Positions 18,473 through 59,336 of a DNA stretch of 64,000 nucleotides are shown in pieces. Under the pieces are notes generated by a model that saw nothing but the letters and a program-made list of their open reading frames with translations, was not told the origin of the DNA and searched no databases. Within the stretch, counting starts at the first letter, position 1, and each line of letters opens with the position of its first letter. Origin of the DNA: Candidatus Moraniibacteriota bacterium (GTDB lineage Bacteria; Patescibacteriota; Minisyncoccia; Moranbacterales; UBA1568). A program made the position numbers and the translations under genes. The stretch is taken from positions 25,061 to 89,060 of the forward strand of contig SSEF01000001.1 of the NCBI GenBank assembly GCA_008012175.1. Direction: 5' to 3'.

Positions 18473-18535
18473 TTGACACGGACAAACCGAAACGCTATAA
18501 CGGGTGCATCGTCACTTACCAAAGAGAGGTGCCTC

Positions 18536-18964
18536 ATGGTTAGAAACCACCCTGTCGGCTTTCGGCTGATCGATTTGGCAGGGAGCGTTCCGCCTGATCA
18601 TCGCCCGCCGAAGCCCGGTGCCACCGGACCACGATCTGTCCGCTCGCAGCAGATCTGGGTTGACCGACAGACCGATGAGCTTTGGGAGATTGTGCTGATA
18701 TCAGCCGGCGCTTCAAGCCGGAAATTCCTTTTTACGCTGGAGCTTTACGGCGGCTACTGGGATCGGAAACGCAGGCTTTCCTGGTCGGTCCTGAACAATG
18801 GTTTTGAAGTGCTTGAAAACGCGGTCCGCTCTCGCAAAGAGAGGATTTTAGTCCTTCGGGAAATGTACATGAATGCCGAGGCCGGGACTGAGAGGTCTCC
18901 CGATGCCGCAAGTTACGTTCTTTCTTTCGGCTTCGATCCCGAGACCGGTTTCCGCATCAAATGA
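18536..18964 (+). CDS. Hypothetical protein
   Basis: ORF with normal GC. Start moved to the internal ATG (MVRNHPVGF...) because the longer ORF leaves zero intergenic space for the divergent HAD gene. No recognisable domain. Confidence 0.35.
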   Translation: MVRNHPVGFRLIDLAGSVPPDHRPPKPGATGPRSVRSQQIWVDRQTDELWEIVLISAGASSRKFLFTLELYGGYWDRKRRLSWSVLNNGFEVLENAVRSRKERILVLREMYMNAEAGTERSPDAASYVLSFGFDPETGFRIK

Positions 18965-18976
18965 TGCGGTCTTTTT

Positions 18977-19294
18977 TTACTTGAATTCGTAGAGGACGGA
19001 ACGGAAGTTCATGATTCGGTCGTTGATATCCAGCTGGATATTTTCTTTTTTGTAGAGTTTCATGCGTTCAGCGCGGTGCCGGTCGTCGATCCAGATGCGG
19101 CCGTCAGCGTAGACGATGCGGTGAAAGGGTATGGCTTTCTCCCCATTGCCCCAGGCTTTGGATAGGATGCTGGTGATCGATTGCGAGGCCATCGGTCCGC
19201 CGCCGGCAGCCCGAGCGATCCGGCCATAGGTCGTCACGTGACCGGCTGGGATGGAGAGTGCAAGACGCACCACTCGTTCGCTGAAGATTTGCAT
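18977..19294 (-). CDS. Alkyltransferase-like protein (MGMT/Ogt DNA-binding domain with active-site Cys replaced by Phe)
   Basis: IPAGHVTTYGRIA...PFHRIV corresponds to the MGMT HTH and the PCHR active-site motif, with Cys replaced by Phe. Confidence 0.6.
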   Translation of the reverse strand: MQIFSERVVRLALSIPAGHVTTYGRIARAAGGGPMASQSITSILSKAWGNGEKAIPFHRIVYADGRIWIDDRHRAERMKLYKKENIQLDINDRIMNFRSVLYEFK

Positions 19295-19351
19295 AATGTG
19301 CTGTCCCTGTGGGACGAAGTTGGAACCAAATTATTACAAGAAGACGCCTAG

Positions 19352-20125
19352 CTACTTTGAGAAACTATCTATCCAGTTAAGAAATAGACCTTTTATCTCT
19401 TCCAAGTGTCCTTGCTCTCGGAATGTATGGGATGCTCCTTTGATAATGTGTAATTTTTTGCTTCCAGGCAGCTTATCAAAAAAAATCTGTTGATGTTTTG
19501 GTGGTGTACTTGTGTCGCTTTCTCCGACAATAAGTAACACTGGCATCATAAGTTTATCCGCATTTTCCAAGAGATCATACCTCAAGCGATCTTCCATAAA
19601 AGACCATTTCAACTTTTTCATTACCCCTGGTTTTGATCTACTCTCACTGATGCGATATCCGGTTTCCTTCCACTTTTTGAGTTCTTCTCGGGTATATGTT
19701 TCGAGTAGCAAAGAGTTTGAAACAACAGTAGAGATAGGAGCCAGAGCTAACACCTTCTCTGGATATTGTTCTGAAAACAAAGCCGCGCAAAGTCCCCCGA
19801 GACTATGACCAGCAAGGACAAAAGGCTCCTGATACCATTGTTGATCTGCTGACCAGTGAAGGACGTCTTCTAAGTCTTCGTAATAGTTTGATACGGTGGC
19901 ATCTTCGTAATTCCCGTCACTTTCTCCAAGAGTATTTGTGGTATCAAACCGTACAACCGTAAATCCTTTCTCTTTGAACGCCTGAGCAAATGTTGCGATA
20001 TGAAGTTGTTCTTTAAATCCACCGAGTCCATGCATCACAAAAGCCAATCCTGTCTGATTGTCAGTTTTTTCGACGATCACCGAAATATTTTGACCGTTGC
20101 GGTTTTTAATAAAAAGTTTTTGCAT
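19352..20125 (-). CDS. Alpha/beta-hydrolase fold protein (serine hydrolase, GHSLGG nucleophile elbow)
   Basis: FVMHGLGG...LAGHSLGG...GESD..HIIKGASH catalytic-triad layout. Clearly lower GC (about 42 percent) than the flanks. Confidence 0.8.
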   Translation of the reverse strand: MQKLFIKNRNGQNISVIVEKTDNQTGLAFVMHGLGGFKEQLHIATFAQAFKEKGFTVVRFDTTNTLGESDGNYEDATVSNYYEDLEDVLHWSADQQWYQEPFVLAGHSLGGLCAALFSEQYPEKVLALAPISTVVSNSLLLETYTREELKKWKETGYRISESRSKPGVMKKLKWSFMEDRLRYDLLENADKLMMPVLLIVGESDTSTPPKHQQIFFDKLPGSKKLHIIKGASHTFREQGHLEEIKGLFLNWIDSFSK

Positions 20126-20161
20126 AAAGCATTGGCTGAACTTATGGGACGACGTTGGAGC

Positions 20162-20578
20162 CTATTTTAACCAATCAGGGGCCGTCTTTTCGGAAATTGA
20201 AGCATCAAATTCGTGGTAGTTATTGGTGAGTTCTTCACCGGGCTTAATCTCTCGGTTAGCAATGAAGTGTGGTTCTGGAGAAATAGCGATATCCATTACA
20301 ACACTGAGACTATGGTTTTTGGCATCATGGTTTGTATAGAGTGCCGGATCATTCTCCGGTGGAAAGATATACTGATGTGAGGCCAAGGAAAGATAAGCCA
20401 CTTTTTCCATGTACTCTTTTTCTTTCGTATTGAGATTTTCATATTCATTTTGTGAGAGGCTTCTGTCATGTTTTGGGACATACTTCCAAACAACAGCACC
20501 TTTAGGAATTTTCCCCACAGAAAAAACGCCTTTACCTTCAACGGCTGATTCTGCAACAGTGACAGGAAACAAGTACAT
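20162..20578 (-). CDS. SET-domain protein (putative protein-lysine methyltransferase)
   Basis: GKGVFSVGKIPKGAVV (SET N-region), YTNHDAKNHSL (NHSC-like) and IKPGEELTNNY (ELxxxY) motifs. Low GC. Start trimmed to ATG 20578 so it does not overlap the tRNA. Confidence 0.65.
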   Translation of the reverse strand: MYLFPVTVAESAVEGKGVFSVGKIPKGAVVWKYVPKHDRSLSQNEYENLNTKEKEYMEKVAYLSLASHQYIFPPENDPALYTNHDAKNHSLSVVMDIAISPEPHFIANREIKPGEELTNNYHEFDASISEKTAPDWLK

Positions 20579-20588
20579 AATTTTTGTG

Positions 20589-20660
20589 CTGGGGAGGATG
20601 GGATCGAACCATCGCATGGAGGCTTCAAAGGCCCCTGCCTTACCGCTTGGCTACTCCCCA
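20589..20660 (-). tRNA. tRNA-Gln (anticodon UUG)
   Basis: Reverse complement reads TGGGGAGTA-GCCAAGCGGTAAGGC-A-GGGGC-CTTTGAA-GCCTC-CATGC-GATGG-TTCGATC-CCATC-CTCCCCA-G. Cloverleaf with U1-A72, 3-bp D stem, anticodon loop CUUUGAA and T-loop TTCGATC. Closely resembles bacterial tRNA-Gln. CCA is not encoded. Confidence 0.85.
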
Positions 20661-20663
20661 AGG

Positions 20664-22295
20664 CTAGTTTGTTTCGGTCACGAGCTGGCCGCCGAGCATC
20701 TGGATAGCCTCGTCGATAATGGCGGGGCGTTCCGCCTGGGCCAGAGGGGCTTCGGCCGATGCTTCTTTCTCGGTGAAGATCCCCCAGGGCGTACGAAACC
20801 CCAAGATGGTAACAAAAGCCTGGTCGAGCGTCAATCGATTCGCCTCCTGCATGAGCCGCTCTTTGTGAAAAGGGTATTTCACCTGGAGCATGAGCCGGTT
20901 TCCCCTGATGACGGGGGTCGCAGTGGAGAGCGCGACGCCGAGAGAGGCGTTCAACCGGAGGGCATGCGTCTTTACGGCTGACCACTGGCGGAGCGCGAGG
21001 CCGAGGTCGACAGGCGCGTCAGCTGCGATCGGTTCCGAATCTGCTGCGGCCGACGCTCTGACGGGATCGACGGACACGGATTTTTTTGGTTCGACGGCCG
21101 GGGCAGTCGGGCGCTCGGATGGGGTTGGATCGGATGGTTTTTCAGCAGGGGAAGAAGAGGGCGGCGTAGATTTTGGCACGCTGACCGGCGGAGTAGCCGA
21201 TGTCCGATCGTTCTGAATCAGCTTCACGAGCGCGATCTCAATCGGGAGTTCGGGTAATGGCGAGACTTTTATCAGGCGATCGGCTTCCTGGAAGCGCTCG
21301 AGACACTCCACGATGCGCGGGGCGCCGAGGGATGCTGCGAGGGCGAAGAGGTCAGTCTTCTCTTCCACTGTGAAATCATCGATCAGCTTTTCAGCAGCGG
21401 TCCGGTCAACAGCGGCAAACAAGAGTTTGCGGCAGTATTCGAGGAGCGACAAGGCAAAACCGGAGAACTGAGCACCGGTGTCCCGGAGTTCAGCGATCAC
21501 CGAAAAAGCGCGCGTTATGTCGCGTTCGGCTATAGCGGCGAGGAGTGCGTGATTTTTAGTCACTGTAGTTGTACCAAGGAGGAGCGCGACTCGCTCGGCA
21601 TCGATAGGGGATTCCTCGAGTGTTGCGATCTGAGTGAAGAGGATTTCGGCATCGCGCATACCGCCTTGGGCCGTACGGGCGATTGAAGTGAGTGCGTCCT
21701 TCTCGACCTTCAATTTTTCGGCTTTAGCGATCTTCTCGAGCTTGGCGATGATCATATCGACAGGGAAACGCCGGAGGTCGTGCCGGAGCCTCCGTGAGAG
21801 TATGGTCTCGGGGACTTTCGCAGCATTGGTCGTGGCGAGGATGAAGACAACATGCGCTGGCGGCTCCTCGAGCGTTTTCAAGAGGGCGTTCCAGGCACCG
21901 ATCGAAAGCATATGGGCCTCATCGATGATATAGACTTTATGGCTCCCCAGGACGGGGGCGCTCGTCACAGTCTCGCGGAGCTCGCGGATATTGTCGACAC
22001 CGGTATGTGAGGCGGCATCGATCTCGATGACATCGAGCGAACGGCCATCGACAAAAGCAATGCAGTGGTCGCATTTCCCGCAAGGCTCGAACCCTTTTCG
22101 TTTTGAGCAATTGAGGGCTTTAGCAAAGAGCCGGGCGAGCGTGGTCTTTCCGGTGCCGCGCGGCCCAGTGAAAAGATAGGCGTGGGCAAGCTTTCCTGTC
22201 ACGAGGCTCTGGGTCAGGACGGTTACCGCAGTTTCTTGGCCTATGACATCTTTGAATTGAAACGGCCGGTATTTTCGATAGAATGTTTCAGACAT
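20664..22295 (-). CDS. dnaX: DNA polymerase III subunit gamma/tau
   Basis: YRPFQFKDVIGQE...LFTGPRGTGKTTLARLFAKALNC...CGKCDHC and the downstream clamp-loader boxes. Confidence 0.9.
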   Translation of the reverse strand: MSETFYRKYRPFQFKDVIGQETAVTVLTQSLVTGKLAHAYLFTGPRGTGKTTLARLFAKALNCSKRKGFEPCGKCDHCIAFVDGRSLDVIEIDAASHTGVDNIRELRETVTSAPVLGSHKVYIIDEAHMLSIGAWNALLKTLEEPPAHVVFILATTNAAKVPETILSRRLRHDLRRFPVDMIIAKLEKIAKAEKLKVEKDALTSIARTAQGGMRDAEILFTQIATLEESPIDAERVALLLGTTTVTKNHALLAAIAERDITRAFSVIAELRDTGAQFSGFALSLLEYCRKLLFAAVDRTAAEKLIDDFTVEEKTDLFALAASLGAPRIVECLERFQEADRLIKVSPLPELPIEIALVKLIQNDRTSATPPVSVPKSTPPSSSPAEKPSDPTPSERPTAPAVEPKKSVSVDPVRASAAADSEPIAADAPVDLGLALRQWSAVKTHALRLNASLGVALSTATPVIRGNRLMLQVKYPFHKERLMQEANRLTLDQAFVTILGFRTPWGIFTEKEASAEAPLAQAERPAIIDEAIQMLGGQLVTETN

Positions 22296-58418: not shown

Positions 58419-59336
58419 ATGATCGAGGATCATCGGCTTAGGATTTCTCAAGAAGAAAAAGATAAACTTGCTCGTCATGAAGTAGCGAAGACCCCAGAGG
58501 AAATTCGCCTGTTTGAATTTGCCGACTCTTGGGGACAGAAACGTCAGGAAATCTGTGGTGCTACCCCCTATCAATTTCCGGTAAGGAACATTTTTCTCTT
58601 GAAACCGGATGGCTATAACGAAATGGTTGGTGGAAGCGGCGCGACTGGGTATGTCGATTCTCAGCGAATTGCGATGGTTATCCAGGACAACAAGTATAAT
58701 CTCACATCAAAAGTATTCCATGAGATGACACATTGTCGGGGTAAAATCGTTGTTGAAATTGCTGAGCGCGATCAACGGGTACTTGGGAATACGCTGCGGA
58801 CGGGGCTCACCGTTCATTCAACGAGTACTCAGAATCGAAGAGGGGAAAGTCATAAACATCTACATGGCTTAGAGGAAGCAGTGGTGTCTCAGGAGGAAGT
58901 TTATTTCAGTTTTGCTTTACTGGATCGTCCAGAGTTCAAAGAGCTAAAAAGAATGATGCTATCTGAATCAGGTAGGGCGGAAAGAGAGCGTATTTGCGAC
59001 GCTAAAAAACTTGATAATGATGACCTACTCTGCTTTGATCCAGAGAAAAAAGAATATGAAATCGTAGGTTACTCGAAGCAGAGAAAAGTACTACGCTACG
59101 TCTGCCAAGAGATTGCTGAGGCAGTGAATAGCACTGAGAATGAAGTCTATTTCTTGTTTTTAAAAGCCCATTTTTCTGGTCATCTCCTTGAAATTGCTCG
59201 GTTGTTTGAGAAAACATTTGGTTCGGGGGCTTTTCGAAGACTTGGGGATATGGGCACAGACTCTGTCTCTGCTGTTCAGACACTTGAGGCTTTGAAAAGA
59301 ATGAGAGCCGGCATGATAGGAACTCGAGATAAGTAA
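58419..59336 (+). CDS. Hypothetical protein with HExxH (HEMTH) zincin-like motif; low-GC gene
   Basis: SKVFHEMTHCRG. GC about 43 percent, well below the flanks. No further family assignment possible by eye. Confidence 0.45.
   Translation: MIEDHRLRISQEEKDKLARHEVAKTPEEIRLFEFADSWGQKRQEICGATPYQFPVRNIFLLKPDGYNEMVGGSGATGYVDSQRIAMVIQDNKYNLTSKVFHEMTHCRGKIVVEIAERDQRVLGNTLRTGLTVHSTSTQNRRGESHKHLHGLEEAVVSQEEVYFSFALLDRPEFKELKRMMLSESGRAERERICDAKKLDNDDLLCFDPEKKEYEIVGYSKQRKVLRYVCQEIAEAVNSTENEVYFLFLKAHFSGHLLEIARLFEKTFGSGAFRRLGDMGTDSVSAVQTLEALKRMRAGMIGTRDK

Follow-up and report, generated by a model that had tools for sequence, protein, structure and literature searches.

The window analyzed here, a 64-kb stretch from a metagenome-assembled genome of Candidatus Moranbacteria (Patescibacteria or Candidate Phyla Radiation, CPR), contains a low-GC islet directly beside a tRNA-Gln(UUG) gene, with two minus-strand genes for a SET-domain protein and an alpha/beta hydrolase. 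This islet very probably represents the first two units of a cassette array docked at the tRNA-Gln 3′ end. Each unit is a promoter-less, co-oriented module composed of a leader of 5-11 nt, one open reading frame (ORF), and an unstructured 33-nt terminal element, and units would be gained, lost, and swapped singly with the recombination junction at or just after a CAGC motif. The reading as a whole, an integron-like cassette array with trans-catalyzed recombination at the tRNA-Gln 3′ end, is one that we hold with moderate confidence, while on its specific component, a site-specifically catalyzed exchange, we are evenly divided.

Two cassettes follow a tRNA-Gln gene

The tRNA-Gln(UUG) gene at 20588..20660 on the minus strand (ARAGORN; Rfam tRNA, 61.5 bits) is the anchor and putative docking site of the array. 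Its 3′ end reads ...CCTCCCCAGC, and the next base is the first base of cassette 1 (453 nt; 20135..20587, minus strand). This cassette comprises a 9-nt leader, ACAAAAATT (20587-20579, minus strand), the coding sequence (CDS) of the SET-domain protein (20162..20578, minus strand), and a 33-nt terminal element that includes the SET stop codon TAG (copy 2; 20135..20167, minus strand; AAATAGGCTCCAACGTCGTCCCATAAGTTCAGC; nhmmer 27.5 bits, E 4e-6). Cassette 2 (835 nt; 19300..20134, minus strand) consists of another 9-nt leader, CAATGCTTT, the hydrolase CDS (19352..20125, minus strand), a 19-nt spacer, and a second 33-nt element (copy 1; 19300..19332, minus strand; AATTTGGTTCCAACTTCGTCCCACAGGGACAGC; nhmmer 31.9 bits, E 2e-7), after which ACATT leads to the ATG of an alkyltransferase-like (ATL) gene. 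Read on the coding strand and with a slash marking each junction, the three boundaries are tRNA ...CCTCCCCAGC/ACAAAAATT-ATG (SET), ...TAAGTTCAGC/CAATGCTTT-ATG (hydrolase), and ...AGGGACAGC/ACATT-ATG (ATL). The dnaX-tRNA-SET-hydrolase junctions were recovered in four independent assemblies and are therefore not the result of mis-assembly.

The two element copies form an imperfect 33-nt direct repeat (76% identical) of which one closes each gene, and the window holds just these two. An earlier note on this DNA, made from the sequence alone, had found no repetition of the tRNA 3′ end in the window; this is correct insofar as the repeats are not tRNA copies, but the 33-nt repeat itself had been missed.

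Both genes differ from their surroundings in composition. The GC content of positions 19295-20587 (1293 nt) is 40.8% compared to 53.8% for the whole window, about 4.3 standard deviations (SD) low for windows of the same size (SD 3.0%) and the minimum of the 64 kb, and the two genes have a GC content at third codon positions (GC3) of 0.366 (hydrolase) and 0.391 (SET) compared to 0.629±0.071 for the other ORFs of the window. The earlier note had pointed to this low-GC stretch with its SET gene and GHSLGG hydrolase gene on the minus strand and had suspected horizontal acquisition. Pfam matches and a fold model of SET (see below) agree with the gene calls, and composition and codon positions, with GC and GC3 lying 3-4 SD low, agree with foreign genes. 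Homologues of SET and the hydrolase have around 40% GC in several hosts, and the two cassettes would have come from a lower-GC CPR gene pool.

Cassettes differ one by one between relatives

The window was compared with related loci and contigs that are labeled with L-numbers (L001, L085, L091, etc.). L091 is 93% identical at the nucleotide level to window positions 20138-19300, and this similarity ends exactly at the end of the element, beyond which L091 continues with an unrelated methyltransferase gene. L091 lacks SET and has its tRNA-Gln joined straight to the hydrolase leader, ...CCTCCCCAGC/CAATGCTTTTATG (hydrolase), where the window reads ...CCTCCCCAGC/ACAAAAATTATG (SET) ... TTCAGC/CAATGCTTTATG (hydrolase), and the segment missing from L091 is exactly cassette 1. 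The SET gene of L092 shows 86% nucleotide identity over 20593-20135, stopping at the element. Other loci combine the same parts differently: L090 has tRNA-Gln, an unrelated gene of 165 aa with its element, the hydrolase with its element, and an inositol-phosphatase gene, L085 has dnaX, tRNA-Gln, a 33-nt partial tRNA copy, a gene of 164 aa, SET with its element, and a DDE transposase, and L217 and L218 have dnaX, a GIY-YIG gene, tRNA-Gln joined to SET, a diverged element, several other genes, and ATL followed by a HAD gene, with proximal and distal flanks the same as those of the window. SET thus occurs without the hydrolase in L085, L092, and L217, and the hydrolase occurs without SET behind the tRNA in L091.

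In these comparisons the element moves with the ORF upstream of it and the short leader with the ORF downstream, with the junction at CAGC. The modularity is confirmed by independent cases of shuffling: L156 and L135 share a Vut_1 cassette that starts with CAGC/TCGCTTTTTT, following the tRNA in the former and the third element in the latter, and the 92% identity between L148 and L164 begins at the element. In the window, SET would have been inserted between the tRNA and an esterase cassette that was already resident.

The closest other species in the genome collection, L001 (DnaX 56%, ATL 74%, GFA 66% identical), clusters dnaX, tRNA-Gln, GFA, and ATL without SET, hydrolase, or HAD. Its own low-GC array lies 3′ of its inverted tRNA and contains a GIY-YIG gene, an 18-nt tRNA 3′ copy, an ORF of 83 aa, a decayed element, and a terminator. 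Since the cargo differs between relatives at the same tRNA, this supports horizontal acquisition, also by the measure of the earlier note, which had itself proposed a comparison with sister genomes lacking the two genes.

A side observation concerns L085 (L085:3371-3515), whose own tRNA-Gln ends in ...GGGCAAC and not in CAGC. The 33-nt partial tRNA-Gln 3′ end, located 35 nt downstream, is 94.6% identical to the tRNA of the window and not to that of L085 itself, and the array hangs from this copy, which suggests that a donor tRNA end may have been imported along with a cassette.

The earlier note had taken the two genes for one islet next to a classical integration site. Its view of the tRNA 3′ flank as insertion point is borne out by the junctions of L091, L090, and L092, whereas the single islet gives way to two modules with independent distributions (L091 versus L085, L092, and L217). 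A single islet that arrived through a tRNA-targeting integrase since lost, with SET as host-directed effector of an episymbiont, would account for the adjacent tRNA 3′ end, the low GC and GC3, the CPR organism, and the true partial tRNA-Gln 3′ copies in L085, L001, and L020. We nevertheless regard it as very improbable because the two genes occur independently with a boundary element of their own between them, so that L091, L090, and L092 largely refute it, and because the repeats of the window are not tRNA copies. Furthermore, no integrase was found in the window, as the earlier note had already stated, or in 120 related loci by single-seed searches, there is no link to phages or plasmids, and the SET protein belongs to a large stand-alone family without signal peptide or extra domains in a group, the bacterial SET proteins, that is not pathogen-specific.

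Arrays are widespread and strictly polar

Scanning metagenome contigs with the pattern TTCYAACNTCGTCCCANNNNNNCAGC yielded at least 120 stretches, compared to around 10 matches expected by chance (an estimate from a guessed collection size), and a profile search found 244 elements in these loci. In no locus do elements lie on both strands. Of the 46 tRNAs in the loci listed, 39 are tRNA-Gln (UUG or CUG). In all 39 loci with a tRNA-Gln it is co-oriented with the elements and lies upstream of every one of them (77/77). The commonest upstream neighbor is dnaX, likewise co-oriented (12 array loci among those listed). In an integron-like reading, tRNA-Gln would play the role of attI.

Units have a median length of 669 nt, and an array contains from 1 unit to at least 8. 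In 57 of 115 units, one co-oriented ORF takes up 60% or more of the length, and 54 of these are among the 87 units shorter than 1300 nt. The stop codon of this ORF usually touches or overlaps the A-rich beginning of the element. The element itself always lies on the coding strand after this stop, with the ATG of the following ORF 2-70 nt further on, and unit leaders measure 5-11 nt. The cargo is diverse and includes NUDIX (three cases), GDSL, HAD, PAP2, histidine phosphatase, cytidine deaminase, and MBL-fold proteins as well as Vut_1, HD, tRNA_bind, and several domains of unknown function, with no recombinase among it. The cassettes are probably expressed by read-through from dnaX and tRNA-Gln, because they are co-oriented with 9-nt leaders and no terminator-like sites were found between dnaX and ATL in the window.

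The terminal element is conserved in sequence and unstructured

The consensus of the element, derived from 115 unique copies, is AAAnAGGTTCCAACATCGTCCCAGACnGCCAGC. Its CAGC is invariant and also forms the end of every tRNA-Gln gene (A72-G73-C74). Several positions left free in the search pattern are nonetheless conserved (-8 A, 89%; -2 G, 91%; -1 T, 99%; +16 A, 91%), and conservation stops sharply past CAGC. A diverged variant, GTTC[CT]GA[AG]C[AG]C[AG]TCCAA[CT]AAGCCCAGC, bounds SET cassettes at L092:176-202 and L217:6462-6488. It is missed by the main profile, and the numbers of elements and arrays are therefore underestimates.

Several identities of the element were considered and rejected. 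Shuffle tests speak against decay from the tRNA 3′ end, because the likeness is confined to two blocks, GGTTC and CAGC, and does not reach significance in the interior. An attC-like or tRNA-like fold is contradicted by RNAalifold, which found no structure on either strand of the 115 copies (mean minimum free energy z +0.45), and manual pairing into a T-arm fails as well. No Rfam family matches the element, with Rfam finding only the tRNA. A genome-wide regulatory motif does not fit with just 2 copies in 64 kb. A phage or plasmid origin was dismissed after a motif scan of viral contigs that gave only 3 weak partial matches and a blastn search of phage and plasmid collections that gave none.

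The relatives L085, L001, and L020 carry genuine partial copies of the tRNA 3′ part, with lengths of 33, 18, and 14 nt, respectively, and some sit where the element would be. Since true tRNA copies occupy the position of the element in these relatives, they suggest a possible series from tRNA copy to diverged element.

The element could also be primarily an expression signal, i.e., an RNA 3′-end or processing site, a terminator substitute, or a site of re-initiation, with the modularity due to ordinary rearrangement and the low GC intrinsic to these gene families. Its constant position on the coding strand between stop and start would agree with this, as would the scarcity of Shine-Dalgarno sequences (9/46 genes) in this genome and the GC of around 40% that SET and hydrolase homologues have in several hosts. 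It is too scarce for a general signal, however, occurring twice in the 64 kb and in none of 80 dnaX loci from other lineages, and there is neither RNA structure or covariation nor an Rfam family or T-arm fold, while break-points and empty sites coincide with the element. We therefore see this explanation as quite improbable on its own; it can be compatible with recombination and is no replacement for it.

Cassette exchange and the search for a catalyst

The exactness of the empty and filled sites, the strict polarity, and an abrupt edge of conservation argue for a fixed crossover at or beside CAGC. The exchange would then be site-specific and catalyzed in trans by an enzyme that the cassettes do not encode.

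A number of results weigh against this interpretation. The evidence for cassette mobility is wholly comparative, consisting of presence/absence and positional shuffling. Break-points within ±40 nt of the element end are enriched only modestly (24/268 versus 3/150 at random), an enrichment that is real yet diluted because of core-gene homology, so that individual pairs of loci were used instead. Of the 27 loci whose upstream sequence exceeds 3 kb, 11 show no tRNA-Gln, so that part of the copies may lack a tRNA anchor. The decay of elements correlates weakly with how far they lie from the tRNA (rho -0.14, p 0.04), and a gradient from young proximal to old distal cassettes was rejected as weak and biased by ascertainment. 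The element has no inverted repeat or hairpin, although most site-specific recombinases, and the attC sites of integrons, use such structures. No tyrosine recombinase was found in the window or 2 Mb of loci by phmmer with a XerD seed, nor by a motif regex over the ORFs of the window, and a Hin seed found one serine-type (Hin-like) ORF, in L210, over the same DNA; the phmmer searches used a single seed each, which divergent enzymes could escape. Finally, clustering of recurrent neighbors found no recombinase that recurs next to arrays.

The gene family that does stand close to the docking site is GIY-YIG: the 2.06 Mb of loci contain 12 such ORFs, of which 6 are no more than 60 nt away from a tRNA-Gln (binomial P about 4e-8; Pfam matches with E 8e-18 and 9e-16). 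The main rival explanation, which we consider unlikely, builds on this family and proposes nuclease- or transformation-driven homologous exchange without any dedicated recombinase. Selfish GIY-YIG (and possibly other) nucleases would cut in or next to tRNA-Gln, and the break would be repaired with DNA that the naturally competent CPR bacteria take up from relatives and that is anchored by dnaX and tRNA-Gln on one side and by elements, shared cassettes, or ATL on the other, so that flanking cassettes are co-converted. The element would be kept because cassettes carrying it spread better or because it is a nuclease recognition site. Such a scenario draws support from the position of these genes and the local tRNA duplicates that flank them as well as from the unstructured element and the lack of a recombinase nearby. 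In addition, tRNA-Gln is nearly identical between lineages and would offer a 73-nt anchor, and natural competence is reported for Saccharibacteria (PMC10633639). However, the tRNA-Gln of the window has no GIY-YIG gene, and the insertion of SET would need a crossover between element and tRNA end, which have only GGTTC and CAGC in common; matches of 4-6 nt are probably too short for RecA-type recombination. The edge at CAGC and the co-inheritance of the leader with the downstream ORF also fit a fixed crossover better.

The tRNA duplicates around GIY-YIG genes (L001, L020, L090, L152, L217, and L218) follow two recurring patterns. In the first, a second copy of the 5′ portion of the local tRNA (acceptor and D-arm; L090:76-147, L152:2897-2971, L217:5537-5660, and L218:240-364) lies upstream of a GIY-YIG gene that precedes the intact tRNA-Gln. 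These copies, whose D-loop contains one or two intervening GC-rich hairpins (e.g., CCCGCCTCGACTCGC...GCGAGGCGGG), run straight into the GIY-YIG start codon, which looks like the mark of a selfish nuclease gene that would duplicate or rebuild its target tRNA. In the second pattern (L001:12184-12547, minus strand, and L020:17958-18301), a GIY-YIG cassette with the shared leader TATCCTTCGCTAAAGCTAC[A/G]GAATAGCA directly follows tRNA-Gln(UUG) in one phylum-level lineage and tRNA-Gln(CUG) in another, and is itself followed by GGATAC and 14-15 nt that repeat the 3′ end of the tRNA in the same genome. Judged from sequence, this would be a target-duplication-like signature, which is not expected of a classical attP-borne repeat.

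Another candidate for an array-associated enzyme or regulator is an ORF of 225-245 aa wedged between dnaX and tRNA-Gln in 4 loci (including L085:2683-3357 and L119:323-1060). It has an N-terminal helix-turn-helix (HTH; faint resolvase HTH_7) and a conserved LWLIGxALxWxEGSK motif and matches no family or PDB entry. A "LAGLIDADG-like" label for this ORF was dropped, as Pfam and PDB gave no support past the faint resolvase HTH.

The cargo of the two cassettes

The product of cassette 1 is a minimal stand-alone SET-domain protein of 138 aa (Pfam PF00856, 41.3 bits compared to a gathering cut-off of 22.4, E 2e-10), labeled by NCBI as SET-domain protein-lysine N-methyltransferase. Its start is the ATG at 20578, 9 nt past tRNA-Gln, which gives the length found in all homologues. 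The NCBI record TXH08267.1 uses an upstream ATG instead and extends to 151 aa (20162-20617, minus strand), overlapping the tRNA-Gln 3′ end by 30 nt; since the homologues all back the 138-aa form, this public annotation would need correcting.

An AlphaFold2 model (pLDDT 88.4) had MLL1, S. pombe Set7, SETD8, and viral vSET as top Foldseek matches with probability 1.0. The motifs EGKG (GxG), YTNHD, and EELTNNY align with KMT2/KMT2D SET cores, and an alignment of 51 homologues has 25 invariant positions that include G15, G17, N83, H84, E115, E116, and Y121. Members of this CPR-centered subfamily are 46-86% identical to each other. Like viral vSET, S. pombe Set7, and archaeal Go1-SET, of which the latter methylates an archaeal chromatin protein, the SET protein of the window is a stand-alone core of around 120-140 aa with GxG, NH(S/D), and ELxxxY motifs, and Foldseek aligns it to 3kma and 5h6z with TM-scores of 0.59-0.74. 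Its identity to any solved SET protein is only about 20%, and it lacks the post-SET cysteines.

The earlier note had called bacterial SET proteins rare and typically host-directed effectors, a view that is outdated: we found 675 cluster representatives of stand-alone SET proteins of 120-150 aa at E<=1e-10, and a review reports SET genes from free-living and environmental bacteria that cluster separately from those of eukaryotes (PMC3980110). The suggestion that this SET protein is a host-interaction factor likewise found no evidence in its favor, as the protein opens directly in the SET core, and neither sequence nor model contains a signal peptide, targeting domain, ankyrin, or pre-SET or post-SET module. 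By default we read it as a putative intracellular protein methyltransferase that is ordinary cargo.

The hydrolase of cassette 2 (257 aa, serine carboxylesterase type) matches Pfam Hydrolase_4 (E 2e-20, 73.7 bits compared to a cut-off of 27) and Abhydrolase_1 and has GHSLGG as its nucleophile elbow (GxSxG). Its PDB relatives are MHETase-like proteins and cinnamoyl esterases (E 7e-20 to 1e-15), no NCBIfam equivalog was reached, and the protein is predicted to be a generic serine carboxylesterase. The family is very widespread in Patescibacteria, where 2216 homologues are 65-70% identical, and it is also present as an ordinary operonic gene (L216).

Flanking genes and other features of the window

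The conserved proximal flank is dnaX (DNA polymerase III gamma/tau; 20664..22295, minus strand; Pfam DNA_pol3_delta2, E 1e-42; DnaX is TXH08268.1), whose stop codon lies 3 nt ahead of tRNA-Gln. The two genes are also adjacent in L002, L005, L006, L085, and L217. At the distal side, the ATL gene (18977..19294, minus strand; Pfam DNA_binding_1, E 2e-12) is a conserved flank and not a cassette. Its product has the MGMT DNA-binding domain with PFHR replacing PCHR and is therefore ATL-like, and the gene has normal GC (GC3 0.705), in line with what the earlier note had said of it. ATL orthologues beside the same locus are 74% identical in L001 and 77% in L217.

Between ATL and the HAD hydrolase gene, around 500 nt (18473-18976) contain no credible gene, only a plus-strand ORF of 163 aa without family match. 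L217 has a gene of 268 aa in this place, and the gap in the window may be the remnant of a decayed gene. The sole other ORF of the window with islet-like composition (58419-59336, plus strand; 305 aa, GC 0.44, GC3 0.39) has no Pfam or NCBIfam match and adjoins a GDP-mannose-dehydratase/epimerase gene; it was probably acquired horizontally as well and perhaps belongs to a surface-polysaccharide cluster.

By a lenient test, only 9/46 genes of the window have a Shine-Dalgarno-like sequence upstream, and translation in the source genome seems to start largely without Shine-Dalgarno pairing. A missing Shine-Dalgarno sequence as a cassette-specific trait was therefore rejected.

Significance and comparison with known systems

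CPR/Patescibacteria make up a large share of bacterial diversity, and the routes by which they shuffle accessory genes are largely obscure. To our knowledge, few classical mobile elements have been described in these bacteria with their tiny genomes, and full-text literature searches turned up no account of cassette arrays at tRNA-Gln in CPR bacteria. If our interpretation is correct, the tRNA-Gln cassette array would be a concrete route of gene flux in CPR. It is conceivable, though we propose it only tentatively, that Patescibacteria own a previously undescribed gene-capture platform, integron-analogous in function and distinct in mechanism, that would combine docking at the tRNA-Gln 3′ end, unstructured 33-nt tags, and a trans-acting enzyme such as a tRNA-Gln-associated GIY-YIG protein or an unrecognized recombinase, with SET and the esterase of the window as two of its cargo genes. 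The arrays would also amount to an inventory of functions that are dispensable and exchangeable, such as esterases, NUDIX and HAD hydrolases, phosphatases, transporters, and the SET methyltransferase, and that may matter for an episymbiotic lifestyle, and the tRNA-Gln docking site could be usable for engineering CPR bacteria, which are hard to manipulate.

The arrays resemble tRNA-anchored tandem integrative elements and genomic islands such as the tycheposons of Prochlorococcus (10.1101/2020.12.28.424599) in that cargo accretes 3′ of a specific tRNA, with newer cargo pushing older cargo distally, in the tRNA-related repeats between units, and in hosts whose streamlined genomes contain few classical mobile elements. 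A tycheposon brings along an integrase and replication modules of its own, and partial tRNA copies of roughly 40 nt flank it (10.1101/2020.12.28.424599). The units described here, in contrast, are single genes without integrase, and their repeat has only GGTTC and CAGC in common with the tRNA.

The elements that bound our cassettes are all direct repeats without recognizable dyad symmetry and thereby differ from the sites of Acinetobacter pdif modules. Like the minimal mobile elements of Neisseria, pdif modules are small modules with short sites or flanks and no element-encoded transposase, and they rely on host Xer recombinases or on transformation and homologous recombination. The pdif sites are 28-nt XerC/XerD sites in alternating orientation, while minimal mobile elements have no internal repeat.

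Finally, integrons, including chromosomal arrays and the integrase-less clusters of attC sites lacking integron-integrases (CALINs), are the closest functional parallel to what we propose. Both have co-oriented, promoter-less cassettes of mostly a single ORF with their own 3′ element and diverse cargo, arrays that begin at a fixed docking site, and, in our reading, a crossover at the extreme end of the element after which the first bases of the next cassette follow. At the tRNA-Gln arrays, however, no intI was found beside the docking site or in the loci (single-seed XerD search), and instead of attI, a functional tRNA-Gln gene provides the docking site with its 3′ end. The attC sites of integrons measure 57-141 nt and are conserved in structure and variable in sequence, whereas the element described here has 33 nt, is conserved in sequence and unstructured, and contains CAGC as its core in place of GTTRRRY. 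If true, our interpretation would make the tRNA-Gln cassette array a second, independently evolved answer to the problem that integrons solve.

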